Made by a program: the position numbers and the translations under genes. A stretch of DNA of 34,325 bases from Deltaproteobacteria bacterium (GTDB lineage: Bacteria; Myxococcota_A; Polyangia; Haliangiales; Haliangiaceae), in the NCBI GenBank assembly GCA_021413675.1, contig JAIOQA010000083.1, forward strand, positions 1-34,325, written 5' to 3'. The notes under the pieces are model-generated. The model ran no database searches. It worked only from the letters and a program-made list of their open reading frames with translations, and had not been told where the DNA came from. Shown here piece by piece: positions 6,450 to 33,744 of this stretch; positions within the stretch are counted from its first letter, which is position 1; every line of letters begins with the position of its first letter.

Positions 6450-7016
6450 GGCTGTTCCATGGCGAGACCGGGAGTTCCGGTCGCGCGGACGAGCGAGAGT
6501 GATCCGCCAGGCGGGCCGCGCGAGCCGGCAGGCCTGTCGAGCGGCCCCGTCGACGACGACGGGCCCGATTCCGGACAGACCTCAGCCGGCGACGTGGTCG
6601 CCAGAGGGCGGATCGCGGGGTTGGCGATCGCGCATCATCCGCGTCGGAGCGGTCGCGGCGGATCTCGACGAGAGACCGCGCGCGACGGAGGGGTGCTCCG
6701 CCGCGGCCTAGCGACGTCCCGGAAACACGGACAGGACGCAGTAATCATGCGCGCGCACGCTCGCCGCCACGTGGGCAGCGGTTGCGCGGGGGAAGCGGAG
6801 CTTCGGCATGACGATCCTCGGGCGTCACCCTAGAGTCGCGATCACCGGATGTCAACAACCCATCTCGAAGTGACCGAGTCTGCGCCGATGATCGCGAGTG
6901 CGAGATCGCGAGATCGGGAGACCGCGGCGCGGCCGCGGGAGGGGCATCGCCCGCGCATTTTGGTTGACGATGAACCGGCGTCCGCGCTACTGGTCCGGCC
7001 ACTCAAGGAGCACATC

Positions 7017-7915: not shown

Positions 7916-9064
7916 TCACGCCGCCATCGCACCCACGCGGTGCGGCCCCGGCGCGACCGCCGGCCGCGGCGCGACCGCCGCGGACGCGCGCTTCACCGAC
8001 CGCCGCGCCGACGGCAGCGCGAGCGTGGCGATCCGCTTCGCGACGCTGCCGAGCTGCTTCGCGAAGCTGCCAGTCGCGTAGCTCTGGCCGTAGCGCGCGC
8101 AGATCGCGCGGACCTTCGGCGCGAGCTCGGGATAGCGCGACGCCGGCAGATCGGGGAACAGGTGGTGCTCGATCTGGTGGCTCAGGTGCCCGGTCAGGAC
8201 ATGCAGCCAGCGGCTGCCCTCGATGTTGGCCGAGCCGTTGAGCTGGCGCGCGTACCACTCGCCGCGGCTCTCGTGCTCGGTGTCGGCGCGATCGTAGACC
8301 TGCACGCCCTCGGGGAAGTGGCCGCAGAAGATGACCGCGAAGGTCCACAGGTTGCGCCCGAGGTTGGCGAGCCAGTTGCCCGCGATCACCCGCGGCGCGT
8401 TGCCGAGCGCGAGCGCCGGGTAGAACACGTAGTCCTTGCCCAGCTGCCAGCCGGCCTTGCGCAGGAACGGTCGCGCGCGCTCGCGCAGCGCCGCGAACGA
8501 CTGCTTGCCGGCGAAGGCCTCGTCGATGCGCAGATCGTGGGTCGCGACACCCCACTGGAAGTTGACCGCGAGCGCGAGCGCGGTCAGGGGCTGCGCCAGG
8601 TGCGACGGCCGCCACGCCTGGGCCTCGTTGACCCGCAGGAAGCCGTAGCCGACGTCGCGGTCCTTGCCGAGGATGTTGGTGAACGTGTGGTGCTCGTAGT
8701 TGTGCGAGTGGCGCCAGTCGCCCGCGTCGCACGCGTTGTCCCACTCGTAGGCATGGCCGGCGAGCGCCGGATCGCCGGTCCAGTCGTACTGGCCGTGCAT
8801 CACGTTGTGGCCGATCTCCATGTTGTCGAGGATCTTGGCCAGGGTCAGCGCGGTGGTGCCGACCGCGAACGTGATCGGCCCGAGGCCCACGTGCAGGAGC
8901 ACGCGACCGGTCGCCTCGCAGGTGTTGGCGACCTTGATCACCGCGCGGATGTGGTCGACGTCGCGCTGGCCGAGGTCGGCGAGCACCTCGGTGCGCAGCG
9001 CATCGAGCTCGCGGCCGAACGCGTCGGCCTCGTCGCGGGTCAGGGTCCGGCTCGGGGTCGTCAT
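7916..9064 (-). CDS. desB: Membrane acyl-CoA/acyl-lipid fatty acid desaturase (DesB/DesA3-type)
   Basis: Three His boxes are present: HNVMHGQY, HSHNYEHH and HQIEHHLFP. It has hydrophobic membrane segments. The SD GAGAGGA precedes the ATG (cat at 9062-9064). It is the downstream partner of the oxidoreductase, matching Pseudomonas desCB. Confidence 0.88.
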   Translation of the reverse strand: MTTPSRTLTRDEADAFGRELDALRTEVLADLGQRDVDHIRAVIKVANTCEATGRVLLHVGLGPITFAVGTTALTLAKILDNMEIGHNVMHGQYDWTGDPALAGHAYEWDNACDAGDWRHSHNYEHHTFTNILGKDRDVGYGFLRVNEAQAWRPSHLAQPLTALALAVNFQWGVATHDLRIDEAFAGKQSFAALRERARPFLRKAGWQLGKDYVFYPALALGNAPRVIAGNWLANLGRNLWTFAVIFCGHFPEGVQVYDRADTEHESRGEWYARQLNGSANIEGSRWLHVLTGHLSHQIEHHLFPDLPASRYPELAPKVRAICARYGQSYATGSFAKQLGSVAKRIATLALPSARRSVKRASAAVAPRPAVAPGPHRVGAMAA

Positions 9065-9095
9065 GGGTTCGTCCTCTCGTTCGAAAAGGTCAGGG

Positions 9096-10190
9096 TCACA
9101 GCGCCAGCTCGAGATCCGAGCGCGCCGCGGAGATGCACAGCTGGATGTCCTGATCCGGCGCGCTCGACTCGACGCCGGTGATCAGGTTCACGACCGTGCC
9201 GCTGGTCTTGCGGCAGGTGCAGGTGTGGCAGATGCCGATGCGGCAGCCCGACGCCGGGCGCTCGCCGGCGCGCTCGAGCTGCTCGAGCAGCGAGCCATCG
9301 GTCGAGGCGGGCACCGTGCGCGCCGCCCGCGCGAGCGACAGCTGCACCCGCGCGGCCGGGCCGCTGGCCGCGCGCGGCGCGGGCACGACGAACCGCTCCT
9401 GGTGGAGGCGATCGGCGAGCCCGTCCTGCGCCCACATCGCGGCGACGCGATCCATGAGGCCGGTCGGCCCGCACACGAAGGTCGCGCGGCGCGCGCGATC
9501 GGGGACCGCGGCGGCGAGCGCGGCCTCGTCGAAGCCACCGCCCTCGTCATCGAGGCGGAGGATCAGCCGCAGGCCCGGGTGACGCGCGGCCAGCCGGGCC
9601 AGCTCGCCGCGGAACGGCACGTCGGTGGCACTGCGCGCGTGGTGCACGAAGACCACGTCGTCGACCGCGCCCGTCGCCGCGAGCTCGCGCAGCATCGACA
9701 TGACCGGCGTGATGCCGCTGCCGCCGCTCAGCAGCAGCAGCGGCCGGGGTGCGTCGGGCAGCGTGAACTCGCCGGCGGGCGCGCCCAGGCGCAGGACCTG
9801 GCCCGCCTTCACGTGGTCGTGCAGCCAGCCCGAGACCCGGCCGCCGGGCACGCGCTTGACCGTGATCGACAGCGTGCGCGCCGACGGCGGCGACGCGATC
9901 GAGTAGCAGCGGCGCACGCGCACGCCGTCCAGCTCGACCTCGACCGTCGCGAACTGCCCGGCCTTGTGCCCGGGCCAGCGCCGGTTGGGCGCGAGCACGA
10001 AGGTCTTCACGTCCGGGGTCTCGGCGATGACCTCGATCACGCGCGCCTGGACGTGGCGAAACGAGCGGGCGCTGCCGACCGCGCCCAGCCAGAACTCGGC
10101 CTGGCGGTCGAGGAACAGCCCGCGGGCGACCGCGGTGGCGGTGGCGCGCCAGGTGCGGGCGGCGGAGGTGGGCATCGCGGGGGTGGTCAT
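9096..10190 (-). CDS. desC: Desaturase-associated oxidoreductase with FAD/NAD(P)-binding ferredoxin-reductase fold and a C-terminal 2Fe-2S ferredoxin domain (DesC / Rv3230c-like)
   Basis: It reads RCYSIAS...GGRVSGWL (FAD-binding), LLLSGGSGITPVMSM (NAD-binding) and a C-terminal CRIGICHTCTC cluster. The start was chosen at the second ATG (10188-10190), which has AAAGGAG 5 nt upstream. The track ORF extends 12 codons further. Confidence 0.85.
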   Translation of the reverse strand: MTTPAMPTSAARTWRATATAVARGLFLDRQAEFWLGAVGSARSFRHVQARVIEVIAETPDVKTFVLAPNRRWPGHKAGQFATVEVELDGVRVRRCYSIASPPSARTLSITVKRVPGGRVSGWLHDHVKAGQVLRLGAPAGEFTLPDAPRPLLLLSGGSGITPVMSMLRELAATGAVDDVVFVHHARSATDVPFRGELARLAARHPGLRLILRLDDEGGGFDEAALAAAVPDRARRATFVCGPTGLMDRVAAMWAQDGLADRLHQERFVVPAPRAASGPAARVQLSLARAARTVPASTDGSLLEQLERAGERPASGCRIGICHTCTCRKTSGTVVNLITGVESSAPDQDIQLCISAARSDLELAL

Positions 10191-10200
10191 CGGGGCTCCT

Positions 10201-10217
10201 TTGTTACGCAACCGTAA
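10201..10217. promoter_or_regulatory. Candidate TetR (DesT-like) operator half-site pair 1: TTGTTACGCAACCGTAA
   Basis: It lies in the divergent intergenic region between desC and the TetR gene. A near-identical copy with the 8-bp core inverted occurs 97 bp away at 10299-10316. Confidence 0.4.
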
Positions 10218-10298
10218 GTTACTCATTCGTAGGTTTCAGTCAATCCCCAATCGACGCACCGCACCACAGCGCCGGCTATCGTGCGGGATGCGCTCGGA

Positions 10299-10316
10299 TT
10301 GTTACCGTTGCGTAAC
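10299..10316. promoter_or_regulatory. Candidate TetR (DesT-like) operator site 2: TTGTTACCGTTGCGTAAC
   Basis: Its reverse complement GTTACGCAACGGTAACAA matches site 1 except for one base. It lies 27 nt upstream of the TetR start codon. Confidence 0.4.
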
Positions 10317-10343
10317 CTACGGTCGTGGCTTAGCGTGGCCGCC

Positions 10344-10964
10344 ATGAAGAGCAGTCGCACCCGGCTCCCGGCGACCGAGCGCCGCGCCCAGCTCATCGAT
10401 GTCGGCCGCGCGGTGTTCGCGAAGCACGGCTACGAGGCGACCTCGATGGAGGACATCGCCGACAAGGCCAAGGTCTCCAAGCCGATCGTCTACGAGCACT
10501 TCGGCGGCAAGGAGGGCCTCTACGCGGTCGTCGTCGATCGCGAGATGGACTACGTCGTGCGGCGGATCGTCGAGGCGATCGCCTCGGGCTCGCCGCGCGA
10601 GCGGGTGGAGCGCGCGGCGCTGGCGTTCCTCAACTACGTCAAGGATCATCCCGATGGCTTCGCCGTGCTGTCGCAGGACTCACCGCTGACCTCGTCGCGC
10701 GGGCGGCTGTCGAGCCTGCTCAACGATCTCGCCGAGCGCGTCGGCGACGTGTTCGCCGCCGGGTTCAAGGACGCCGGGTTCGATCCCAAGTCGGCGCCGA
10801 TCTACGCCCACGCGCTGGTCGGCATGATCACCTTCGTCGGCAAGTGGTGGACCGACGTCCGCAAGCCCTCGGTCGAGGAGGTCGCCAAGCACATCGGCGC
10901 GCTGGCCTGGATGGGCCTGCGCCACCTGCCGAAGAAGCCGACGCTGGCGATCCGCCCGGGCTGA
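10344..10964 (+). CDS. desT: TetR-family transcriptional repressor (DesT-like, divergent from desCB)
   Basis: The HTH reads [52 protein letters not shown] 10344 was chosen over the track's GTG 10281 so that the operator-like site lies upstream. Confidence 0.85.
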
Positions 10965-13385: not shown

Positions 13386-14270
13386 ATGCGGAACACGCTG
13401 CTCGTCGCGCTCGCGCTCGTGGTTGGTTGTGGCGGGTCGTCGCCGTCGTCGGACACCGATGCCGCGGCACAGGACGGCGACGCGGCCCCCGGCGACGGCG
13501 CCGTGGGCGCGGTCGATGCCTCCCCCGGCGCACCCGACGCCGGCGCGACCCAGACCGCCGGGTGCGGCATGAGCGGCGGCGCGCCCGGCCTGCAGACCAA
13601 GACGCTCACGGTCGCCAACGTCGCGCGCACCTACCGCGTGTTCGTGCCGACCGGCTACGACTCGTCGACGCCGACCCGCCTGGTGTTCGTGTTCCACGGC
13701 CTCGGCGGCGACGGCAACCAGATCCGCGCGTACTTCGGCTTCGAGGCCCAGGCCGGCGGCCAGGCGCTGTTCGTCTATCCCGATGGCCTCGTCGTGCAGG
13801 GCGGGCAGACCGGCTGGGCCGCGAGCGACCTCGCGTTCTTCGACGCGATGGTCACCGAGATCTCGGCGCACTATTGTGTTGACCCGCAGCGCATCTTCGC
13901 CGCCGGCCACAGCTTCGGCGGCTACATGTCGAACCTCGTCGGCTGCTCGCGCGGCACCGTGGTCCGCGCGATCGCGCCGGTCTCCGGTGGGCTCGCCGGC
14001 GGCGCGTGCGATCACCCGGTCGCCGCCTGGATCGCCCACGGTGACAATGACCAGACCGTGAACCAGAGCGAAGGCATCGCGGCGCGCGATCGCTGGCGGA
14101 TGGAGAACGGCTGCGCCACGACCTCGACCGCGACCGATCCGACGCCGTGCGTGACCTATGACGGCTGCTCGGCGGGCCACCCCGTGACGTGGTGCTCGTT
14201 CAGCGGCGGGCACTACCCGCTGCCGGCGTTCATCAAGCCGGGCATCTGGAACTTCCTCGCGCAGTTCTGA
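13386..14270 (+). CDS. Secreted esterase lipoprotein (PHB-depolymerase/feruloyl-esterase-like alpha/beta hydrolase)
   Basis: The lipobox reads LALVVGC, followed by a Gly/Asp/Ala-rich linker. It reads RLVFVFHGLGGDG and has a GHSFGG nucleophile elbow. Confidence 0.8.
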   Translation: MRNTLLVALALVVGCGGSSPSSDTDAAAQDGDAAPGDGAVGAVDASPGAPDAGATQTAGCGMSGGAPGLQTKTLTVANVARTYRVFVPTGYDSSTPTRLVFVFHGLGGDGNQIRAYFGFEAQAGGQALFVYPDGLVVQGGQTGWAASDLAFFDAMVTEISAHYCVDPQRIFAAGHSFGGYMSNLVGCSRGTVVRAIAPVSGGLAGGACDHPVAAWIAHGDNDQTVNQSEGIAARDRWRMENGCATTSTATDPTPCVTYDGCSAGHPVTWCSFSGGHYPLPAFIKPGIWNFLAQF

Positions 14271-14370
14271 CCGTCACCGACGGTCGCGCACCGCCGGGCG
14301 ACCGAAGCCCGGCGAGATGGTGGCCAGCGCGTGACCGGATCGTGTCCGCGGCGGCCCTACCTTCGGCGGC

Positions 14371-15003
14371 ATGGAGCTCGCCCGACCCACGCTGCGCGGT
14401 GTCTCGCACCGCTTCGCGTTCTTCATCGCCCTGGGCGCGGGCGTCACGATGGTGGCGCAGGCGCGCGCCCTGCCCGCGCTGGTGACGACGGCGATCTACG
14501 CCGCCACGCTGGCGGCGCTGTTCGGCATCAGCTCGACCTATCACCTGCACCCGGGCGATCTGCGCGCGCGGCGCGGCTGGCAGCGCGCCGATCACGCGAT
14601 GATCTTCATCTTCATCGCCGGGACGTACACGCCGATCTCGCTGCTCGCGGTCGGCGGCGCTGACGGCATCAAGCTGCTCGCGCTGGTGTGGATCGGCGCA
14701 GGCCTCGGCGCGCTGCGCGCGATCGCGTGGCCCGACGCGCCGCGCGTGATCAGCACGGTCCTGTACCTCGCGCTGGGCTGGGCGATGGTGTGGTACTGGC
14801 CCGCGGTCCGCGCCGCGCTGTCGCCCGTGGGGCTGGCGCTGCTGTTCGCCGGCGGCGCCTGCTACACGGTCGGCGCGGTCATCTATGCGCTGCGCCGCCC
14901 GGATCCGCTGCCGGCGGTGTTCGGCTACCACGAGGTGTTCCACGCGCTGGTGATCGCGGGCAGCGCGTGCCACTTCGCGCTCGTGCTGATGGTGGTTCGC
15001 TAG
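14371..15003 (+). CDS. Hemolysin III / PAQR family membrane protein
   Basis: It is 7-TM, with the characteristic HLHPGD...ADHAMIFIFIAGTYTP...GYHEVFHALV motifs. Confidence 0.85.
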   Translation: MELARPTLRGVSHRFAFFIALGAGVTMVAQARALPALVTTAIYAATLAALFGISSTYHLHPGDLRARRGWQRADHAMIFIFIAGTYTPISLLAVGGADGIKLLALVWIGAGLGALRAIAWPDAPRVISTVLYLALGWAMVWYWPAVRAALSPVGLALLFAGGACYTVGAVIYALRRPDPLPAVFGYHEVFHALVIAGSACHFALVLMVVR

Positions 15004-15140
15004 GCCGCGGGGCGCGAGCCGCGATTTCGCGCAAATGACGCGCGGCCGCGCGCAGCGTCGAGCGTGAGAGTGGCGCCAACGCGCCGATCCACCGCACCGC
15101 CGCCACTGGTTCGTCACGATCGCGGTGTTACGTTGCCGGC

Positions 15141-16280
15141 GTGCTCGACTTGAACCAACGCGTCGTCCTGGATCGCGCGGGGTTCGCGGCGCTCCTGCAG
15201 GCGCTCGCCGATGACGGCCACGCGCTCGTCGGCCCGACGGTGGGCGACGGCGCGATCGTGCTCGACGCGATCGCCGGGATCGACGATCTCCCGCGCGGCG
15301 TCGGCGACGACCAGGCCCCTGGCCACTACCGCCTGCGCGATCGCGGCGACGCCGCGCTGTTCGGCTACGCGGTGTCGCCGCACGCGTGGAAGCGCGAGCT
15401 GCTGCCGCCGCGCGTGCCGCTGGTGCAGATCCGGCGCAGCGCGACCGGCCTCGCGATCGAGGCGGCGCCCGCCCCGACCCGCAAGGTCGCGTTCATCGGC
15501 GTGCGCGGGTGCGAGCTGGCCGCGATCGCCATCCAGGATCGCGTGCTCGCGACCGGCGCCCACCCCGACGCCGACTACGCCGCGCGGCGCGCGCAGAGCT
15601 TCATCCTGGCGGTCCACTGCGGCTCGCCCGCCGGCACGTGCTTCTGCGTGTCGATGGAGACCGGCCCCCGCGCGCGCGGCGCGTTCGACCTCGCGGCCAC
15701 CGAGCTGCTCGACGGCGAGCACCGCTTCGTCATCGAGATCGGCAGCGACGCCGGCCGGGCGATCCTCGCGCGCGTCGCGAGCCGCACCGCCACCACCGAC
15801 GACGTCACCGCCGCCACCGCCGTCACCGATCACGCGGCGACGCAGATGGGCCGCGCGATGCCGACCGCGGGCCTGCGCGATCTGCTGATGGCGAACCTCG
15901 AGCACCCGCGCTGGCAGCACGTCGCGGATCGCTGCCTCGGCTGCGCCAACTGCACGATGTCGTGCCCGACCTGCTTCTGCACGAGCGTCGAGGACACGAC
16001 CGATCTCTCGGGCGACGTCGCGACCCGCACGCGCCGCTGGGACTCCTGCTTCACCGCCGACTTCGCCTACGTCCACGGCGGCAGCGCGCGACCGTCGCTG
16101 CGCGCGCGCTACCGGCAGTGGATGACCCACAAGCTCGCGACCTGGCACGATCAGTTCGACTCGTCGGGCTGCGTCGGCTGCGGCCGCTGCATCACCTGGT
16201 GCCCGGTCGGCATCGATCTCACCGAGGAGGTCGCCGCGATCCGCGCCGCGCCCGCCCCCAGGAGCCACGCCGATGGATGA
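15141..16280 (+). CDS. hydB: [NiFe] hydrogenase (group 3b-type) Fe-S beta subunit (HydB/AsrA-like 4Fe-4S dicluster protein)
   Basis: It starts at GTG 15141. It has Cys clusters [26 protein letters not shown] and [12 protein letters not shown]. It is the first gene of a B-G-D-A gene order like Pyrococcus sulfhydrogenase. Confidence 0.82.
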
Positions 16281-16722
16281 TCTCGAACGGATCCTCAAGA
16301 CCCACCCGTTCATCGCGGATCTCATGCCCGCGCACGTGCGGTTCCTGGTCGGCTGCGCCAAGAACGTGCGCTTCCGCCCGGGCGAGTACCTGATGCGCGA
16401 GGGCGACCGCGAGGACACCCTCTACCTGATCCGCCAGGGCACGGTCACGATCGAGATGCCGCGCCCGGGCGCCGAGCCGAGCTGCCTCGAGACCGTCGGC
16501 CCCGGCGACGTCCTCGGCGTGTCGTGCCTGACGCCGCGCGCCGCCCACCTCGACTGCCGCGCGCGCGAGAACGTCGTCGCGATCGGCATCGACAACGCCT
16601 GCCTGCACCGCAAGATGGACGAGGATCCGCGCCTCGGCTACGCGATCTCGATGCGCCTGCTGGAGCGCACGTACGACCGGCTGGCGCGCGCGCGGCTACA
16701 GCACCTGGACGTGTACCGGTGA
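16273..16722 (+). CDS. Stand-alone cyclic-nucleotide-binding (CAP effector) domain protein, 149 aa, no DNA-binding domain
   Basis: A cNMP-binding beta-roll reads [27 protein letters not shown]...GPGDVLG, followed by a C-helix. It overlaps the hydB stop by 8 nt, and its own stop overlaps the next start (TGATG). Confidence 0.8.
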
Positions 16723-17558
16723 TGGCGACGAGCCTCCCGGTCGCGGCGAACGCATACGCGCTCGAGCCGATGACGATCGCGCGCGCGAGCCGCGATCTCG
16801 ACGACGTCTTCACGTTCGAGTTCGACGTTCCCGGCGGCTTCGCGTTCCGGCCCGGGCAGTTCAACATGCTGTACGTGCACGGGGTCGGCGAGGTCCCGAT
16901 CTCGATCAGCGGCGATCCGGCGACCCCGCAGCGGCTGGTCCACACGATCCGCGCGGTCGGCACGGTCACCCGGGTCATGGACAAGCTCAAGGCCGGCGAT
17001 GTCCTCGGCGTGCGCGGGCCCTACGGCGCCGCCTGGCCGCTCGACGAGCTGCGCGGCAAGGACGTGCTGGTCATGACCGGCGGGCTCGGCCTCGCGCCGC
17101 TGCGCCCGGCCATCCTGCACCTCCTCGCCCACCGCGGCGACTACGGCCGGATCACGATCCTGTACGGCGCGCGCTCGCCCGCCGACATCCTCTACCGCGA
17201 CGAGCTCGCGCGCTGGCGCGGCCGCTTCGACTGCCGGGTCGAGGCGATCGTCGATCGCGCCGGCCGCGACTGGTACGGCCCGATCGGCGTGGTCACGCGC
17301 CTGCTCGACGGGCTCCCGCTCGATCCCGACGACGGCGTGCTCCTGTGCGGGCCGGAGATCATGATGCGGTTCGCGGTCCGCGCCCTCGACGAGCGCGGCG
17401 TGCCGCGGACCAACATCTGGGTGTCGCTCGAGCGCAGCATGAAGTGCGGCGTCGGCCTGTGCGGCCACTGCCAGCTCGGTGGATCGTTCGTGTGCAAGGA
17501 CGGCCCGGTCTACCGCTTCGATCGCATCGCGCCGGCCTTGCAGGTGCGGGAGCTCTGA
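16722..17558 (+). CDS. hydG: [NiFe] hydrogenase gamma subunit (FAD/NAD(P)-binding oxidoreductase with C-terminal 2Fe-2S, HydG/AsrB-like)
   Basis: It reads MATSLPV..., has an FNR-like fold ([22 protein letters not shown]) and a C-terminal [10 protein letters not shown]. The ATG at 16722 overlaps the previous stop (TGATG). Confidence 0.85.
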
Positions 17559-18352
17559 TGTCGCGCCCCACGCTCGCGGTCTGGAAGTTCGCGTCCTGCG
17601 ACGGCTGCCAGCTCAGCCTGCTCGACTGCGAGGACGAGCTGCTCGCGGTCTGCGGCGCGATCGAGCTGGCCTCGTTCGCCGAGGCTACCTCCCACGTCGC
17701 GCCCGGACCCTACGATCTGTCGCTGGTCGAGGGCTCGATCACCACGCCCCACGACGCCCTTCGCATCAAGGAGATCCGCGCGCAGTCGAAGACGCTGGTG
17801 ACGATCGGCGCGTGCGCGACCAGCGGCGGGCTGCAGGCGCTGCGCAACACCCGCGATCACGCGGCGATGCTGGCCTCGGTCTACGCGCGCCCCGACTACC
17901 TCGAGACGCTCGCGACCTCGACGGCGATCGCCGATCACGTGCCGGTCGACTTCGAGCTGCGCGGCTGTCCGATCGACAAGCACCAGCTGCTCGAGGTGGT
18001 GTCCGCGTTCCTGCACGGCCGCAAGCCCAACGTGCAGCGCCACTCGACCTGCCTCGAGTGCAAGATGCGCGGCACGGTGTGCGTGATGGTCGCGAAGGGC
18101 CAGCCGTGCCTCGGCCCGGTGACCCACGCTGGCTGCAACGCGCTGTGCCCGACCTACGCGCGCGGTTGCTTCGGCTGCTTCGGGCCGAGCGACGCGGCGC
18201 GCCCGGTGCCGATGGCGGATCGCCTGATCGCGCTGGGCACGGCGCGGCCGGTGGTCGAGCGCCTGTTCGAGACGTTCAACGTCGCGGCGCCCGCGTTCCG
18301 CGAGGGCGCCGCCCGCGCGCGCGGCGACGCGCCGCCCAAGGATCACGAATGA
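17558..18352 (+). CDS. hydD: [NiFe] hydrogenase small (delta) subunit
   Basis: It reads [20 protein letters not shown]...GACATSGG...GCP...CLECK...[14 protein letters not shown], a NuoB-like small-subunit cysteine pattern. The start overlaps the previous stop (TGATG). Confidence 0.9.
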
Positions 18353-19641
18353 CCCGGACCATCAACGTCGAGGTGCTCGCCCGTGTCGAGGGCGAGGGCG
18401 CGCTCACCCTCGTGCTCGACGGCGAGGAGGTCGTCGACGCGCGCCTGCGGCTGTTCGAGCCGCCGCGGCTGTTCGAGGCGATGATGCAGGGCCGCGCCTG
18501 CACCGAGGCGCCCGATCTCACCGCGCGGATCTGCGGCATCTGCCCGGTCGCGTACCAGATGAGCGCGTGCCACGCGGTCGAAGATGCGCTGGGCGTGACG
18601 GTCGGCGGCGAGCTGCGCGAGCTGCGCCGGCTCCTGTACTGCGGCGAGTGGATCGAGAGCCACGTGCTGCACATGGTGATGCTGCACGCGCCCGACTTCT
18701 TCCGCGTGCCCGACGTCACCGCGCTGGCCGCGCTCCACCCCGAGCGGGTGCGCGGCGCGCTGCAGGTGAAGAAGGCCGGCAACGCGATCGTCGCCGCGCT
18801 CGGCGGCCGCGAGATCCACCCGATCAACGTCAAGGTCGGCGGCTTCTACCGCGCGCCGCGCCGGGCCGAGCTCGTGGCGCTCCTGCCCGATCTGCGCGCC
18901 GCCCTCGACGAGGCCGAGCAGCTCCTCGACTGGACGAGCACGTTCGCGTTCCCCGAGTTCGCGCGCGACTACGAGCTGGTGTCCCTGCGCCACCCGAGCG
19001 AGTACCCGATGAACGAGGGCCGTCTGGTCTCGACCAAGGGCCTCGACATCGACGTGCGCGAGTTCCGCGAGTACCTGCGCGAGGAGCAGGTGCCGCACTC
19101 GACCGCGCTGCACGCGCAGATCGTCGGGCGCGGTTCGTATCAGTGCGGGCCGCTCGCGCGGTTCGTGCAGAACTTCGACCGGCTGTCGTCGCGCGCGGCG
19201 GCGGCCGCAGCCCGGGTCGGCCTCGATCCGAGCTGCCGCAACCCGTTCCGCATGCTGCTGGTGCGCGGCGTCGAGACCATCTACGCCCTCGGCGAGGCGA
19301 TCCGCGTCATCGAGGCCTACGTGCCCCCGACGCCCGCCGCGGTGCCGCTGCCGATGCGCGCTGGCGTGGGCCACGCCGTGACCGAGGCGCCGCGCGGCAT
19401 CCTCTATCACCGCTACGAGCTCGACGACGCCGGCCTGGTCACGCACGCGCAGATCACCCCGCCGACGTCGCAGAACCAGCGCGGCATCGAGGAGGATCTG
19501 CGCGCGATGGGCCCGACCCTGGCGAAGCTGTCGCTCGAGGACGCGACCCGCCACGCCGAGCACGCGATCCGCAACTACGATCCGTGCATCTCGTGCTCGA
19601 CCCACTTCCTGACCCTCACGATCGAGCAGCGCCGGGCGTGA
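18349..19641 (+). CDS. hydA: [NiFe] hydrogenase large (alpha) subunit
   Basis: The N-terminal motif is [10 protein letters not shown]. The C-terminal motif DPCISCSTH is followed by an 11-aa extension ([11 protein letters not shown]) of the kind removed by a maturation endopeptidase. The start overlaps the previous stop (ATGA). Confidence 0.9.
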
Positions 19642-20189
19642 GCCCTGAGAAGTTGTCATCAACTTCGATCTGCTCCTGTTCCGGAGGAGATCGGGACCGT
19701 CGTCCTCGACGGGGCCGACCGATCGAAGGCGAGCCTGGAGGCGAACGCCTCACAGGCTCGTACGCGGTCATCGTCGGCATCGGCCAGGACGCCGCCGGCG
19801 ACGACGGCATCGGCCTCGCGGTCGCGCGGGCCCTGATCGCGCGCGGCGTGCCGGCGCGGCCGTGCGCGGATGCCTCGGTGCTGCTGCCGCTGTTCGCCGA
19901 GGGCCGCCGGGTCGTGCTGATCGACGCGGTGATCGGCGCCGCGCCGGGCACGGTGATGCAGCTCGATCCCGACGCGCTGGCGACCGGTCCCGCGCCGGTG
20001 TCCTCGCACGGCCTCGGGGTGCGCGAGGCGATCGCGCTGGGCCGCACGCTGTACGGCGCGGTGGCGATCGCGATCGTCGGGATCGCGATCGATCCGCCGC
20101 GCGAAGCGCGGGTCGGGCTATCGGCCGCGGTCGAGGCGGCGATCGCGCCGGCGAGCGCGCTCGCGAGCGCGCTGGCTACCGGCGGTTGA
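19638..20189 (+). CDS. Hydrogenase maturation endopeptidase (HycI/HoxW/HybD family)
   Basis: Conserved [23 protein letters not shown] and VVLIDAV motifs are present. There is no ATG upstream. GTG 19638 overlaps the hydA stop (GTGA), matching the coupling seen at the other junctions. TTG 19653 is an alternative. Either start gives an unusual N-terminal extension of about 36-41 aa before the conserved core. Confidence 0.65.
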
Positions 20190-20260
20190 CCAGCACCCTC
20201 GGTTGCGCGCGCGCGAGACGCGGGCGACGCTGGTCGCATCCCAAGGAGGGGGGCCTCTCA

Positions 20261-28119: not shown

Positions 28120-31100
28120 TCAGGAGCGCGGCACCTGTGCGCTCTCGCTCGCCGGCGTCGGCGCGCCCGCCGGCAGCCCGCGGCCCTTCCAGATGGCGAA
28201 GACCGCGGGATAGACCAGCAGCTCGAGGATGAACGAGGTCACCAGCCCGCCGACCATCGGCGCGGCGATGCGCTTCATGACGTCGGCGCCGGTGCCCGTG
28301 CTCCAGAGCACGGGGATGAGCCCGATCATCATCGTCATGACCGTCATCAGCTTGGGCCGGATGCGGTGCGCGGCGCCCTCGACGATCGCCTCGCGCAGAT
28401 CGCCGCGGGTGCGCAGCAAGCCGGCCTCGTGCCAGCGGCGGTGGGCGATCGTCAGGTACAGGAGCATCACCACGCCGGTCTCGGCATCGAGCCCCGCGAG
28501 CGCGATCATCCCGACCCAGACCGCGACGCTGACGTTGTAGTCGAGCAGGTACAGGAGCCAGATCGCGCCGACCAGCGAGAACGGCACCGCGAGCAGCACG
28601 ATGCCGGTCTCGACCAGCGAGCGCGTGTTCAGGTACAGCAGCAGGAAGACGATCAGCAGCGTGATCGGCACGACGATCGCGAGCTTGGCCTTGGCGCGCT
28701 CGAGGTACTGAAACTGCCCCACCCACGCGATCCGCACGCCCGGCGGCAGCACCGCCTGGCGCGCGACGATCGTCTTGGCGTCGGCGACGTAGTCGGCGAG
28801 CGGCCGGTCGGTGTCGACGAAGACGAACCCGACGAGCTTGCCGCCCTCGGACCGGATCATCGGCGGGCCGGTGACGGTGCGCAGCTCGACCACCTGCGAC
28901 AGCGGGATCTGCGCGCCCGACGGCGTCGGCACCAGCACGCGGTCGAGCAGCTGCGGGTCGTCGCGGAACTCGCGGGCGTAGCGGATGTTGATCGGGTAGC
29001 GCGCGCGGCCCTCGACGGTCTCGCCCACGTCCATGCCGCCGATCGCGGTCTCGATGACGTCGTCGATGTCGCCGACGGTCAGGCCGAAGCGCGCGGCCGC
29101 GTCGCGCTTGACGACCAGGTCGATGAAGAACCCGCCGGTCGAGCGATCGGCGAACGCGCTCTGGGTGCCGGGCGCGTCGGCCAGCGCCTTCTCGATCGCG
29201 ACCGCCGCCTGCTCGATCTGCGCGGCGTCGTCGCCGTAGACCTGGATCGCGATCGGCGCGCGCACGCCGGTCGACAGCATCTCGGTGCGGGTCTGGATCG
29301 GCATCCACACCAGGTTGGGCATGCCCGGGTACTGGAGCTTCTTCTCGATCTCCTGCTTGAGGCCGGTGAAGGTCAGGCCCGGACGCCACTGGTCCTCGGG
29401 CTTGAGCACGATCACGGTCTCGACCATGCCGAGCGGCGCCGGATCGGTCGCGGTCTCGGCGCGGCCGTTCTTGCCGAACACCGTGAGCACCTCGGGGATG
29501 TCGTGGAGCTCGCGGTCCATGATCGCCGTGACCCGCGACGCCTCGGCGATCGACATGCCGGGCGGCGCGCTCGGCATGTACAGCATCGTGCCCTCGTTGA
29601 GCGGCGGCATGAACTCGCTGCCCAGGCGGAACATCGCGGGCACCGTGAACCCGACGACCAGCGCGGCGCCGACCAGCACCATCGCGCGGTGCTCGACGAC
29701 GAACCGCACGACCGGCGCATAGACCGCGACCAGCACGCGGTTCACCGGGTGGCGATCCTCGCGCATGATCTTGCCGCGCACCAGGATCGCGGCGAGCGCC
29801 GGGGTCAGGGTGATCGCGAGGATCGCGGCGAAGCCCATCGAGTAGGTCTTGGTGAACGCCAGCGGCTTGAACAGCCGCCCCTCGACGCCCTCGAGCGTGA
29901 ACACCGGGATGAACGCGACCGTGATGACCAGCAGCGAGAAGAAGATCGAGGGCCCGACCTCCTGCATCGCGGCGATGATCGCGTCCCGGCGATCGCCCTT
30001 CTGCCCGCCGCGCTCCCAGTCGTCGAGCTTCTTGTGGATGTTCTCGATCAGGATGATCGAGGCGTCGACCATCGCGCCCATCGCGACCGCGATGCCGCCC
30101 AGCGACATGATGTTGGCGGTCAGGTGCTGCGACCCCATCGGGATGAACGCGAGCAGCACGCCGAGCGGCAGGGTCAGGATCGGGATCAGCGCGCTGCGCA
30201 CGTGCAGCAGGAACAGGAAGATGATGATGCTGACGACGATCATCTCCTCGATGAGCGTGCCGCGCAGCGTGTCGATCGACGCGCGGATGAGCTCCGAGCG
30301 GTCGTAGGTCGGCACGATCTGCACGCCCGCCGGCAGCGTCTGGCGCAGCTCGTCGAGCCGCGCCTTGACGCCGTCGATGACGTCGAGCGCGTTCTGGCCG
30401 TAGCGCATGATCACGATGCCGCCGACCACCTCGCCCTTGCCGTCGAGCTCGGCGAGCCCGCGGCGGATGCCGGGCCCGATCGCGACGTCGGCGACGTCCT
30501 TCACCGTGACCGGCACGCCGGTCGGCCCGAGCTTGAGCGGGATGCTCTCGAGGTCGGCGGTCTTGGTGACGTAGCCGCGGCCGCGGATGACGTGCTCGTG
30601 GCCGGCGATCTCGATGACCTGCCCGCCCACGTCCTGGTTCGAGCGGCGCACCGCCATCATCACGTCGCCGAGCGCGATGCCGTAGGCGGCGAGCTTCGTG
30701 GGGTCGACGGTGATCTGGTACTGCTTGGTGTAGCCGCCGACGGTCGCGACCTCGGCCACGCCGTGCACGCCCTGCAGCGCGTAGCGCAGGTTCCAGTCCT
30801 GGATCGACCGCAGCTCCTGGAGGTCGTGCTTGCCGGTCGGATCGGTGAGCGCGTACTCGAAGACCCAGCCGACGCCGGTCGCGTCGGGGCCGAGGCTGGG
30901 CGAGACGCCCTCGGGCAGGTGCGACTTGACCTGGTTGAGGTACTCGAGCACGCGGCTGCGCGCCCAGTAGATGTCGGTGTCGTCGTCGAAGATCACGTAG
31001 ACGAACGACATGCCGAACATCGACAGGCCGCGCACCGAGGTCACGCCCGGGACCGCGACCAAGGCCGACGAGATCGGATACGTGAGCTGATCCTCGACGA

Positions 31101-31353
31101 GATCGGGGCTGCGCCCCATCCACTCGGTGTAGACGATGACCTGGGCGTCGGAGAGATCGGGGATCGCGTCGAGCGGCGCGCGGCGCAAGGACATCCAGCC
31201 CCAGACCGCCGCCGCGAGCACGAACAGGATCGTGATGAGCGGGTTCCTGGCGGAGGCCGAGATGATCCGCGCGATCACGCCGACCGGCGCGACCACCGCG
31301 GGCGCGATCGGCTCGGGCGCGGCCGGCGCGGCCGGCGTCTCAGGGACCGACAT
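28120..31353 (-). CDS. cusA: Heavy-metal efflux RND transporter, CusA/SilA family (Cu+/Ag+), 1077 aa
   Basis: It is a full-length HME-RND protein with 12 TM segments. Conserved segments include GGIAVAMGAMVDASIILIENI and DAETGVVMLLYL. Met-rich periplasmic residues are typical of the Cu/Ag subgroup. The start cat is at 31351-31353. Confidence 0.95.
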   Translation of the reverse strand: MSVPETPAAPAAPEPIAPAVVAPVGVIARIISASARNPLITILFVLAAAVWGWMSLRRAPLDAIPDLSDAQVIVYTEWMGRSPDLVEDQLTYPISSALVAVPGVTSVRGLSMFGMSFVYVIFDDDTDIYWARSRVLEYLNQVKSHLPEGVSPSLGPDATGVGWVFEYALTDPTGKHDLQELRSIQDWNLRYALQGVHGVAEVATVGGYTKQYQITVDPTKLAAYGIALGDVMMAVRRSNQDVGGQVIEIAGHEHVIRGRGYVTKTADLESIPLKLGPTGVPVTVKDVADVAIGPGIRRGLAELDGKGEVVGGIVIMRYGQNALDVIDGVKARLDELRQTLPAGVQIVPTYDRSELIRASIDTLRGTLIEEMIVVSIIIFLFLLHVRSALIPILTLPLGVLLAFIPMGSQHLTANIMSLGGIAVAMGAMVDASIILIENIHKKLDDWERGGQKGDRRDAIIAAMQEVGPSIFFSLLVITVAFIPVFTLEGVEGRLFKPLAFTKTYSMGFAAILAITLTPALAAILVRGKIMREDRHPVNRVLVAVYAPVVRFVVEHRAMVLVGAALVVGFTVPAMFRLGSEFMPPLNEGTMLYMPSAPPGMSIAEASRVTAIMDRELHDIPEVLTVFGKNGRAETATDPAPLGMVETVIVLKPEDQWRPGLTFTGLKQEIEKKLQYPGMPNLVWMPIQTRTEMLSTGVRAPIAIQVYGDDAAQIEQAAVAIEKALADAPGTQSAFADRSTGGFFIDLVVKRDAAARFGLTVGDIDDVIETAIGGMDVGETVEGRARYPINIRYAREFRDDPQLLDRVLVPTPSGAQIPLSQVVELRTVTGPPMIRSEGGKLVGFVFVDTDRPLADYVADAKTIVARQAVLPPGVRIAWVGQFQYLERAKAKLAIVVPITLLIVFLLLYLNTRSLVETGIVLLAVPFSLVGAIWLLYLLDYNVSVAVWVGMIALAGLDAETGVVMLLYLTIAHRRWHEAGLLRTRGDLREAIVEGAAHRIRPKLMTVMTMMIGLIPVLWSTGTGADVMKRIAAPMVGGLVTSFILELLVYPAVFAIWKGRGLPAGAPTPASESAQVPRS

Positions 31354-33397
31354 GGCTGCGCTCCCAGAACGCCGCCGAGCGGATCCGGCTCTCGGACGCG
31401 ACCAGGAAGTTCCCCGAGGTCACCACCCGGTCGCCCTCCGCCACGCCGGCGAGGATCTCGACGGTGTCGGTGCCCTCGGCGCCGATCGTCACGTCGCGCG
31501 GCGCGAGCTGGCCGTCGCCGAGATCGACGAAGACGATGCGCCGCGGGCCGGTGTAGACCACCGCGCCCTTGGGGACCTGCAGCCGCGCGCCGAGATCGAT
31601 CGTGAACGCGACGGTCGCGTACATGTCGGGCTTGAGGTCGAGCGCGCGGTTGGCGAGCGCGAGCCGCACGCGCCCGGTGCGCGACGCGGGATCGAGGTAC
31701 GGATAGATGAAGGCGACGGTGCCGTCGAAGGTCTTGCCCGGCAGGTAGGTCAGCTCGATCGCCGCGTGCTGGCCCTTCTTGATGCGCGGGAGATCGGCCT
31801 CGTAGACGTCGGCCTCGACCCAGACGACGTCGAGCGCGGCGATCCGGTAGAGCCGCATGCCGGGCTGGATCGCGTCGCCCTCGACGACGTCCTTCTCGGT
31901 GACGACGCCGGCGGCCGGCGACGGGAACGGGATGTCCTCGAGCGGCTCGTTGCGGGCGTAGAGGCTCTTGAGCTGGGCGTCGCCGAAGCCCCAGAGCCGG
32001 AGCTTGGTCTCGGCGGCGTGGAGCAGCGGATCGGCGTGCGGGTCGGCGGTGGGCGCGGCGGTCGCGCGCCGCCAGGCGAACAGGGCCTCCTGCTGCGCGG
32101 CGTAGAGATCGGGGCTGTAATAGGTGAAGAGCGTGTCGCCCTTCTGCACGGTCTGGCCGGTGGCGTTGACCCGCAGCTTGGTGATGTAGCCGCTGACCCG
32201 GATCGTGACGTCCTTGAGCTGGGTCTCGTCGAAGGTGAGCCGGCCGACCGCGCGGACCGCGAGGCTCATCGGCGCGCGCACGACCGGCTCGGTGCCGATG
32301 CCGAGCACCTGCCGGCGCGCGGGATCGACCGTGATGACGTCGGCGGTCGCGTCGACCGGTGCGGAGGAGGCCGCCTCGGTTGCGGCCGGGCCCTCCCACG
32401 TCGACGGCCCGCCGCAGGTCGGCGAGCGGGCGCCCATGTACGGATTCTCGAGATCGGCGCTGCGCTGGAACCAGCCCTGGTAGCCGGGCGCCATCGGGCA
32501 CTCGAAGACGTGCCAGCCGCTGGCGAGGCGCGGATCGGCGATCGCGAGCGCCTGCAGCGCGCGGCTGAGCTCGCCGAAGGCGGGGCGCGTGTCGTCGAGC
32601 GAGCCGGCCGCGGCGATGGCGGTGATCGCGGCGGCGGCGGCGCGGACCCGATCGCGGATCGCGGCGGGCGCGCTGGCGAGGGCGCTGTCGGCCTGGCCGA
32701 GGGCACCGCCCACGTCGCGGGCGGCGGGCCCGATGTCGGCGAAGCGATCGTGGGCGAGCGCCGAGCGGACCCGCTCGTAGCCGTCGAACGCGCTGGTCAT
32801 CGCGGTCAGCGCCGGCGCGGGCAAGGCGAAGCGCGCGATCGTCGGCGGGGCCGCCGGCGGCGCGGGCGCCGCGGGCGCTGCGGGCGCCGCGCTTCGGGCG
32901 CCGACCACCGCGAGGCCGGGATTGCCGACGGTGAGCGTGTAGCGCGCCGTCCCGCTGGTCGCCGCCGAGGTCACCGCGACCTCGAGGGTGTAGCTGCCGC
33001 CGCCGGGCAGCTCGAGGTTGCTGCGGTACACGCCGCCGCCCTCGCCCGCCGCGGTCGAGCTGCCCTTCATCTCGGCCATCGCGCCCATCGCGGGCATGTC
33101 GTAGGTGACGGTCACCGTCGCGCCGTCGAGCGGCGCCCCCGCGGCGTCGCGCACGACGACCCGGACCTGGTTGCCGCTGATGCGCGGCGGATCCGGCGCG
33201 ATCGAGGTCTCGATGGCGAGGCTGCCGGCGGTGACGCGCGCGCCCGGCGACGCGACGCCGGCGTCGAGCTCCGCGCCGCTGAACCAGGCGACCAGCCGCG
33301 CGCGGAAGATCAGGGCCGCGGTCGCGAGGACCGCGAGCGCTACCCCCGGAACGGCGAAGCGCCGCAGCCGGGACGGAGGAGCAGGCGTGGGAGGCAT
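31340..33397 (-). CDS. cusB: RND efflux membrane fusion protein CusB family with about 330-aa N-terminal extension (Ig-like YtkA/FixH-type domain, Ala/Pro linker and helical FECPM-motif domain)
   Basis: The C-terminal 350 aa form a typical periplasmic adaptor (TFDETQLKDVTIRVSGYITKL...GDRVVTSGNFLV). The N-terminal part carries VRVVVRDAAGAPLDGATVTVTYDMPAMG...YTLEVAV and ...WHVFECPMAPGYQGWFQ. The start was chosen at the ATG at 33395-33397. The first 51 aa of the track ORF upstream are Arg-rich. The stop overlaps the cusA start by 14 nt. Confidence 0.82.
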   Translation of the reverse strand: MPPTPAPPSRLRRFAVPGVALAVLATAALIFRARLVAWFSGAELDAGVASPGARVTAGSLAIETSIAPDPPRISGNQVRVVVRDAAGAPLDGATVTVTYDMPAMGAMAEMKGSSTAAGEGGGVYRSNLELPGGGSYTLEVAVTSAATSGTARYTLTVGNPGLAVVGARSAAPAAPAAPAPPAAPPTIARFALPAPALTAMTSAFDGYERVRSALAHDRFADIGPAARDVGGALGQADSALASAPAAIRDRVRAAAAAITAIAAAGSLDDTRPAFGELSRALQALAIADPRLASGWHVFECPMAPGYQGWFQRSADLENPYMGARSPTCGGPSTWEGPAATEAASSAPVDATADVITVDPARRQVLGIGTEPVVRAPMSLAVRAVGRLTFDETQLKDVTIRVSGYITKLRVNATGQTVQKGDTLFTYYSPDLYAAQQEALFAWRRATAAPTADPHADPLLHAAETKLRLWGFGDAQLKSLYARNEPLEDIPFPSPAAGVVTEKDVVEGDAIQPGMRLYRIAALDVVWVEADVYEADLPRIKKGQHAAIELTYLPGKTFDGTVAFIYPYLDPASRTGRVRLALANRALDLKPDMYATVAFTIDLGARLQVPKGAVVYTGPRRIVFVDLGDGQLAPRDVTIGAEGTDTVEILAGVAEGDRVVTSGNFLVASESRIRSAAFWERSHVGP

Positions 33398-33744
33398 GAA
33401 AGGTCTCGGACGAACCCTCGTGCAACCGCGGCGCCAGCCTGGGTGCCAGCGAGATCCGCGGGGCCATCGTAGGCCGGATCGGTGGCTTCGGCCGGGTCGT
33501 GTGGCCCAGAACGCAGGACCTGCGTGTCGCGGCGTCACCCGCAGGATCACGTGTAACCGACTCGGTCACGCATCCGATGCGTCGCGAGCCACCCGGGACC
33601 CGAGAATCATTCGATCATCTGCGCAAAGCGCGCGCCTCCGATGCGGGCCGCGCACGTCGTGCACCCTCGTCGCCCGTGTCCCCTGGGCACGTCGCTTGCT
33701 GAGACTCCGAGCCTGTAAGGCCCCCCAGGCCAAGGACCGCACCC

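Follow-up and report, generated by a model that had tools for sequence, protein, structure and literature searches.

The contig examined here (JAIOQA010000083.1 of assembly GCA_021413675.1, deposited as Deltaproteobacteria bacterium) was analysed as one stretch of 34,325 nt, hereafter the window, and all window coordinates refer to that whole stretch. Between positions 15141 and 20189 on the + strand lies an operon of six genes, which translation together with Pfam and NCBIfam searches identifies, in order, as those for a beta subunit, a small protein of the cyclic-nucleotide-binding (CNB) fold, the gamma, delta and alpha subunits of a [NiFe] hydrogenase, and a protease (Table 1). The GC content of the contig is 72–75%, and that of third codon positions (GC3) reaches 0.94–0.97 across the co-directional + strand genes of 15141–20189. 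The large-subunit protein is already present in public databases under the name 'nickel-dependent hydrogenase large subunit'. The first-pass annotation of this DNA described a hydBGDA gene order; the four structural subunit types stand as it described them, whereas the CNB-fold gene between beta and gamma was omitted, although both junctions of that gene had been counted. We read the operon as encoding a bacterial group 3b (Hyh/sulfhydrogenase-type), cytoplasmic, bidirectional, NAD(P)-linked [NiFe] hydrogenase of a Kofleriaceae-like myxobacterial metagenome-assembled genome, a reading to which we assign a probability of roughly 0.85.

Table 1 Features of the hydrogenase operon, in order along the window.
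Feature	Position	Strand	Length	Assignment or remark
beta, hyhB-type	15141-16280	+	379 aa	Fe-S protein of the diaphorase half, AsrA/HydB-related
CNB-fold protein, stand-alone	16273-16722	+	149 aa	Pfam cNMP_binding 3.7e-13
gamma, hyhG-type	16722-17558	+	278 aa	FAD/NAD(P)-binding, C-terminal [2Fe-2S] motif
delta (small), hyhS-type	17558-18352	+	264 aa	Pfam Oxidored_q6 1.9e-22
alpha (large, catalytic), hyhL-type	18349-19641	+	430 aa	Pfam NiFeSe_Hases
Lineage-specific structured insert	19642-19760	+		Between ancestral protease start GTG 19638 and protease core
HycI/HybD-type maturation endopeptidase, conserved core	19761-20189	+		Pfam HycI 5.6e-07; TIGR00072 2.5e-19

Subunits and assignment to group 3b

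The assignment to group 3b holds because each of the four structural subunits is best matched by its counterpart in Pyrococcus furiosus sulfhydrogenase I (SHI), which bears out the group-3b-type sulfhydrogenase proposed in the first pass. The best solved relative of beta is the SHI beta chain (9nez_B, 129 bits, 1.7e-36), that of gamma the SHI gamma chain (9nez_C, 175 bits, 2.1e-50) and that of delta the SHI delta chain (9nez_A, 135 bits, 2e-38). For alpha, the top four matches in the PDB are all group 3b large subunits at 195–198 bits (197 for 9nez_D and 198 for T. kodakarensis 5yxy), against about 147–154 bits for groups 3c and 3d, about 98–116 bits for F420-reducing enzymes and less than 98 bits for periplasmic ones. 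The NCBIfam models repeat this ranking: ShyA (232 bits) and HydA (216 bits) match alpha over its full length, whereas frhA (133 bits) and VhuA (121 bits) have their best stretches confined to the N-terminal part, residues 1–169 in the case of frhA.

Family searches of the remaining subunits agree. Beta contains the 4Fe-4S dicluster domain Fer4_22 (4.5e-32) and matches the NCBIfam models sulfhyd_HydB (5e-42) and ShyB (2e-40); its start, GTG 15141, is the first start codon of the open reading frame, and relatives 95% and 66% identical share the same length of 379 aa. Gamma combines Pfam NAD_binding_1 with DHODB_Fe-S_bind, a PyrK-type [2Fe-2S] domain, and matches the hydrogenase gamma, AsrB, ShyC and HydG models at 8e-63 to 1e-52. 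Delta matches ShyD (6e-47) and HydD (4e-43). Sulfhydrogenase models rank first for beta, delta and alpha, and the first-ranked model for gamma is the related 'cytochrome-c3 hydrogenase subunit gamma'. By inspection, the N-terminus of delta leads directly into the first Cys motif, with neither an RRxF motif nor a twin-arginine signal peptide, and no membrane-protein family was matched in the Pfam search of the six operon products.

The ligands of the Ni-Fe site in alpha are intact. C62 and C65 lie in RICGICP (18526–18546), C413 and C416 in DPCISCSTH (19579–19605), and all four Cys are invariant in 20 relatives. An 11-residue C-terminal extension follows DPCISCSTH (19606–19638) and a protease gene follows alpha, both as previously noted. 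The diaphorase half pairs a poly-Fe-S beta resembling AsrA/HydB with a gamma resembling AsrB/PyrK/HydG, and such partners separate group 3b from groups 3a, 3c and 3d, which have FrhB, MvhD/Hdr and HoxFU, respectively, in their place. The PDB and NCBIfam scores and the identity of the partners all favour group 3b.

The structural genes are also under constraint. Measured against the 95% relative L001, the ratio of nonsynonymous to synonymous substitution rates (dN/dS) is 0.135 for beta, 0.129 for gamma, 0.180 for delta and 0.168 for alpha, values that reflect purifying selection.

A CNB-fold gene between beta and gamma

The second gene of the operon belongs to a syntenic arrangement that recurs across related loci. 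Among the 73 loci that cover both beta and gamma, 70 carry the CNB-fold gene in collinear position (for example L003, 7972–8421), giving the order beta, CNB, gamma, delta, alpha and often protease; the three loci without it are labelled Caldilinea, Chloroflexi and Anaerolineae. The CNB domain spans residues 32–117 of 149, and orthologues are 149–171 aa long. An AlphaFold2 model of the protein (mean predicted local distance difference test score, pLDDT, 84.5) adopts a bare CNB fold with a single long C-terminal helix and structurally comes closest to PKG, CRP, GlxR and stand-alone CNB proteins. No helix-turn-helix DNA-binding domain was found either by Pfam or in the AlphaFold2 model, and because of this lack we ruled out a CRP/FNR-type transcription factor; the protein is probably not a cAMP-responsive transcription factor.

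Canonical phosphate-binding cassettes for cyclic nucleoside monophosphates (cNMP) follow the pattern G-E-x-x-x...R-[ST]-A, with a conserved Arg. The corresponding region of this family reads G-[DE]-[VI]-L-G-W-S-W-L-x-P-P-Y-x-W-H-F-D-A-R-A across phyla, and, set against the canonical cassettes, the Arg position holds Tyr in 59 of 70 cross-phylum orthologues and Arg only in the window. The position varies even among relatives of 71–91% identity, and the cNMP site of the family appears, from these alignments, to be degenerate. Three cysteines, Cys28, Cys110 and Cys115, are 84–93% conserved in the family. Within the subclade of the window, which comprises Kofleriaceae-like relatives, Labilithrix and L004, most of the signature residues are replaced.

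A search of 1.84 billion representative proteins returned a natural fusion, P0316 (468 aa), in which a CNB domain is joined to a full-length gamma subunit 46% identical to that of the window. The fusion occurs in three independent assemblies (L085–L087), always directly after the beta gene, and a further gene lies behind it in two longer contigs. This fusion, the location of the gene with beta on one side and gamma on the other, and the overlaps at its two ends indirectly support an association with the diaphorase half. By analogy, the CNB-fold protein is most likely an accessory or regulatory subunit of that half, resembling HoxI of the Cupriavidus necator soluble hydrogenase and putatively bound to its partners.

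More tentatively, and with odds that we place somewhat below even, most bacterial group 3b enzymes could contain the protein as a conserved fifth subunit, docked on gamma and beta, where it would sense a signal other than cAMP or cGMP and gate electron flow. By analogy, candidate signals may include NAD(P)(H), or the redox state read through Cys28, Cys110 and Cys115 together with the GWSW...PPY.W pocket. NAD(P)(H) sensing has been proposed for HoxI, which provides a precedent for a CNB subunit in a soluble hydrogenase (PMC3189943, PMC12319191), and the CNB-fold gene of a group 3b cluster has already been called 'HoxI' (PMC12319191). The protein is routinely annotated as a cAMP-binding regulator, yet its gene is near-universal in these bacterial operons. 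Were the fifth-subunit proposal correct, the four-subunit textbook picture of group 3b, drawn from archaeal enzymes, would be incomplete for bacteria, and structural and biochemical work on the bacterial enzymes should include the CNB-fold protein.

The CNB-fold gene of relative L001 (GCA_964268695.1) carries a 1-nt deletion at about position 8280 (gatccgcgc to gatcc-cgc), which shifts the frame after codon 118, and no gene is called there. Because conservation otherwise continues downstream, a true pseudogene and an assembly error are equally likely explanations.

Gene junctions, maturation and rival readings

The genes of the operon are tightly packed. At the beta/CNB junction, ATGGATGA, the two frames overlap by 8 nt and the CNB ATG overlaps the beta stop; the CNB/gamma and gamma/delta junctions are both TGATG, with a 1-nt overlap each, and the delta/alpha junction is ATGA, with a 4-nt overlap. 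Independent gene calls on an identical Logan contig reproduce these first four boundaries exactly (-8, -1, -1, -4). The string GTGA is present at the alpha/protease junction. The earlier claim that every junction overlaps is thus supported at the first four; the fifth is insecure because no canonical start lies near the protease core. Across 83 related loci, median gaps, which rest on approximate start calls, are -4 (beta/CNB), -4 (CNB/gamma), +1 (gamma/delta), -11 (delta/alpha) and +11 nt (alpha/protease), and nearly every junction overlaps in the relatives L088–L091 (81–83% identity). Since these medians and relatives show the same packing, tight junctions are a trait of the whole operon family, and the overlaps in the window do not exceed what the 83 loci lead one to expect. 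Coupled translation of the subunits is plausible on this basis, as a property generic to the operon family. Tight packing also occurs elsewhere on the contig, for example where the CusB- and CusA-like frames overlap around 31340–31419. Three related loci (L018, L065, L079) have inserted DNA between delta and alpha, and their large-subunit gene lies about 3.1–3.3 kb downstream of the small-subunit gene.

The protease gene departs from this family pattern at its 5′ end. Profile matches (HycI, TIGR00072) align from residue 44, and the candidate metal-ligand positions are kept in GDDG, IDAV and SSHG. Upstream of this core the only in-frame canonical starts are GTG 19638 and TTG 19653, and no in-frame ATG, GTG or TTG occurs between 19653 and the core; whether translation truly begins at GTG 19638, at TTG 19653 or at a non-canonical codon is uncertain. 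The protease genes of relatives open with a start codon that overlaps the alpha stop, as TTGA or GTGA, and reach AVVVGIGQ within 2–5 codons. In the window, and in L001 and L002, its 95% relatives, GTGA is kept but about 120 additional nt precede AVIVGIGQ.

These extra nucleotides (19642–19760) appear to be a small dispersed repeat that landed just behind the ancestral protease start, a reading suggested by codon usage, substitution pattern, folding, absence from relatives and copies elsewhere. The GC3 of the insert is 0.55 over 40 codons, compared with 0.94 in the protease core, and its dN/dS is about 1.1 (against a 95% relative), compared with 0.36 for the core (against L002). Its predicted RNA fold is strong (-75.2 kcal/mol, z = -5.68), with pronounced hairpins that include 19649–19666 (GAAGTTG/TCAT/CAACTTC) and 19667–19692. 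In L001 and L002 both arms of the first hairpin have changed with pairing kept (GAAGTTG...CAACTTC to GAATTTG...CAAATTC). The insert is present in these two genomes at 91–93% identity and absent from L088, L090 and L091, whose large subunits are 81–83% identical. An inverted partial copy of 66 nt and 80% identity (22779–22844) lies within 22766–22844, just past the stop of a vault-protein-like gene, and a second inverted partial copy covers 33 nt at 88% (6537–6569); both lie outside conserved coding cores. An Rfam scan of the whole window found no RNA element. A genuine coding extension of the protease by these 40 codons is disfavoured by codon usage, dN/dS, absence in relatives and the repeat copies. 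Each of the three genomes with the insert nevertheless keeps it in frame and without stops, and a protease translated from GTG 19638 and lengthened by 40 residues at its N-terminus is therefore possible.

Genes for the Hyp maturation proteins are variably linked to this operon family. In 22 of the 83 related loci, including the myxobacterial L006 and L009, hypFCDE lie directly downstream, and in L090, an 81% relative, hypC stands right behind the protease gene. No hyp genes are within reach in the other 61, which makes the unlinked state the majority. Motif scans of L001 and L003 found no hyp genes either. A HypD search seeded from Vitiosangium returned matches in Hyalangium, Sorangium, Minicystis and Polyangia genomes; none of the matches listed bears a Kofleriaceae or Labilithrix label, so the search is uninformative for this genome. 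The group 3b cluster of Frankia is likewise devoid of hyp genes (PMC11879354).

The homologies just described also invite other readings of the operon. Beta matches AsrA (1.4e-27) and gamma AsrB (3.8e-54), both models of anaerobic sulfite reductase, and database names of relatives include 'hydrogenase/sulfur reductase', as would suit an enzyme acting in vivo mainly as a sulfur or polysulfide reductase ('sulfhydrogenase') or in the manner of a sulfite reductase rather than as an NAD(P)-linked hydrogenase. Such a role is quite unlikely: the operon contains no AsrC-like sirohaem subunit, the hydrogenase subunit models outscore the Asr models, and sulfur reduction by P. furiosus SHI is itself regarded as a side activity. 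Automated names assigned by the Joint Genome Institute (JGI), which call many homologues 'coenzyme F420-reducing hydrogenase alpha subunit', would place the enzyme in group 3a. The scores run the other way, with frhA at 133 bits against 232 for ShyA and F420-reducing structures at about 98–116 bits against 198 for group 3b, and the operon encodes HydB- and HydG-like partners and no FrhB-like subunit. By scores and partner subunits the JGI label on these relatives is wrong, and we give an F420-reducing enzyme almost no credence.

Several observations weigh on our group 3b reading itself. A motif scan of the 34-kb window found no hyp genes, and scans for sigma-70 promoters and intrinsic terminators between 14800 and 20500 found none. 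The insert of about 120 nt parts the ancestral start from the protease core and leaves no canonical start near it, so that maturation could be impaired or could proceed via another protease. The CNB-fold protein of the window lacks both signature Trp, the Tyr and Cys115, and its role may have drifted in this lineage. A third possibility, that the operon is decaying or already non-functional, we consider unlikely. In its favour are the absence of hyp genes from the window, the protease gene disrupted by the insert and the 1-nt deletion in the CNB-fold gene of the 95% relative L001. Against this, all six frames are open with GC3 of 0.94–0.97, dN/dS is 0.13–0.18 in the structural genes and 0.36 in the protease core, and all metal ligands are kept. 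The insert is in frame and stop-free in three genomes, the deletion in L001 may be an assembly error, and hyp genes are often unlinked, with none in reach at 61 of 83 related loci.

On the group 3b reading, alpha and delta would form the H2-activating module, in which two CxxC pairs bind the Ni-Fe site and delta supplies an Fe-S relay. The poly-Fe-S beta and gamma, with its FAD, [2Fe-2S] cluster and NAD(P) site, would act as a diaphorase that exchanges electrons with NAD(P)(H), and the CNB-fold protein would be attached to this half as an accessory or regulatory subunit. The protease is expected to cleave behind His419 and release the 11-residue tail after the metal centre has been installed, and the abutting or overlapping junctions would favour coupled and roughly equimolar translation of the subunits. 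By analogy with Hyd3 of M. smegmatis, the enzyme might dispose of excess reductant as H2 in hypoxia or recapture H2 into NAD(P)H; both cofactor use and catalytic direction are inferred.

Distribution, neighbouring genes and comparison with known systems

The operon is widespread, in myxobacteria and well beyond. The closest large-subunit proteins (80–83% identity) bear Kofleriaceae labels, the operon recurs in a cultured myxobacterium, Labilithrix luteola (CP012333), with a large subunit 66% identical, and in Vitiosangium sp. and Myxococcaceae genomes the operon adjoins hyp genes. At least 597 species genomes encode a relative (597 of 600 pattern matches listed, one genome per species). The labels of the best 80 matches span more than 15 phyla and include Myxococcota, Acidobacteriota, Bacteroidota, Ignavibacteriota, Chloroflexota, Planctomycetota, Zixibacteria, Binatia, Verrucomicrobiota, Actinomycetes and others, and plasmids of Burkholderia (in B. 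thailandensis, NZ_CP068711) and Pandoraea also bear the operon. Group 3b enzymes are moreover established in obligate aerobes: Hyd3 of M. smegmatis is induced by hypoxia, its genes being expressed up to 67-fold higher at 0.6% oxygen (PMC2799521). Because the operon is so widespread, with relatives in Kofleriaceae, Labilithrix and Vitiosangium, and because the group is established in aerobes, the earlier view of such an enzyme as unusual for an aerobic-looking myxobacterium finds no support. The locus adds an uncultured myxobacterial member to a well-known hydrogenase class of very broad distribution, and it fits the accepted view that such enzymes balance the redox state when oxygen is scarce.

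Several neighbouring genes on the contig were also identified. Directly downstream of the operon, at 20258–22762 (+), lies a homologue of the major vault protein (MVP) of 834 aa, close to the length of MVP itself; it matches Pfam MVP_shoulder (3.8e-25) and Vault_3, and its residues 468–767 align to residues 467–762 of rat and human MVP. L001 also carries a vault homologue (14145–16115). Upstream, at 7916–10964, two genes on the - strand, one fatty-acid-desaturase-like and the other ferredoxin-reductase-like, are oriented divergently to a TetR-like regulator on the + strand; the desaturase/reductase pair also stands upstream of the hydrogenase operon in L001, from which the Pfam domains were taken, the window genes being identified by translation. 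As judged from sequence, this would be an oxygen-dependent enzyme pair, consistent with an aerobic lifestyle. Inspection of translations further identified a CusA/CzcA-type pump of the resistance-nodulation-division (RND) class at 28120–31419 (-), a long CusB-like membrane-fusion protein at 31340–33565 (-), whose N-terminal half is rich in Ala and Pro and of low complexity, and a divergent outer-membrane-factor-like gene from 33703 onward (+). An RND metal-efflux set also lies beside the hydrogenase operon in Labilithrix, which may be coincidence.

Among solved enzymes, P. furiosus SHI (HydBGDA; PDB 9nez and 9nf0) and the cytosolic [NiFe] hydrogenase of T. kodakarensis (5yxy) contain the same four subunit types in the same order. 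SHI shares with the window both the CxxC pairs and the C-terminal extension; similarity is moderate, at 129–198 bits, and the host of the window is a mesophilic, high-GC bacterium. No 9nez chain matched the CNB-fold protein, and for this reason the solved archaeal enzyme appears to lack a CNB subunit. The PDB copy searched held no bacterial group 3b structure with such a subunit, only archaeal SHI.

The closest parallels in gene content come from Actinomycetota, whereas the window is from Myxococcota. The group 3b clusters of Frankia (synton-4, Francci3_4500-4495) and Rhodococcus equi 103S have identical six-gene content, so that the architecture found here has already been described in the literature; in both, the CNB gene likewise sits between the two diaphorase genes, and neither cluster includes hyp genes (PMC11879354, PMC13332983). 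The CNB protein of Frankia was described as a small transcriptional regulator (PMC11879354), whereas the family examined here has no DNA-binding domain and is found naturally fused to gamma. The best physiological model is Hyd3/Hyh of M. smegmatis (MSMEG_3931-3927), a group 3b enzyme of an obligate aerobe with beta, gamma, delta, alpha and protease genes; in its published gene list gamma (3930) comes immediately after beta (3931), and no CNB gene intervenes (PMC2799521).

For the CNB-fold protein itself, the nearest functional parallel is HoxI of the C. necator soluble hydrogenase (group 3d; HoxHYFUI2). Like the protein of the window, HoxI is small, stands alone as a CNB fold and is encoded in a soluble-hydrogenase operon; its phosphate-binding cassette, too, is without the canonical Arg. 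It dissociates at high salt. HoxI (L092:14836-15339) and the CNB-fold protein of the window share only 18% pairwise identity (25 bits); against the profile of the CNB-fold family HoxI reaches 44.8 bits over the full CNB domain. HoxI has neither the GWSW...PPY.W signature nor the three conserved Cys of the family. Its gene lies behind the protease gene rather than between diaphorase genes, and its partner is the NuoF/E/G-like HoxFU rather than a HydB/HydG-like pair. The two proteins thus appear to be analogous, with a common fold and a common genomic setting.

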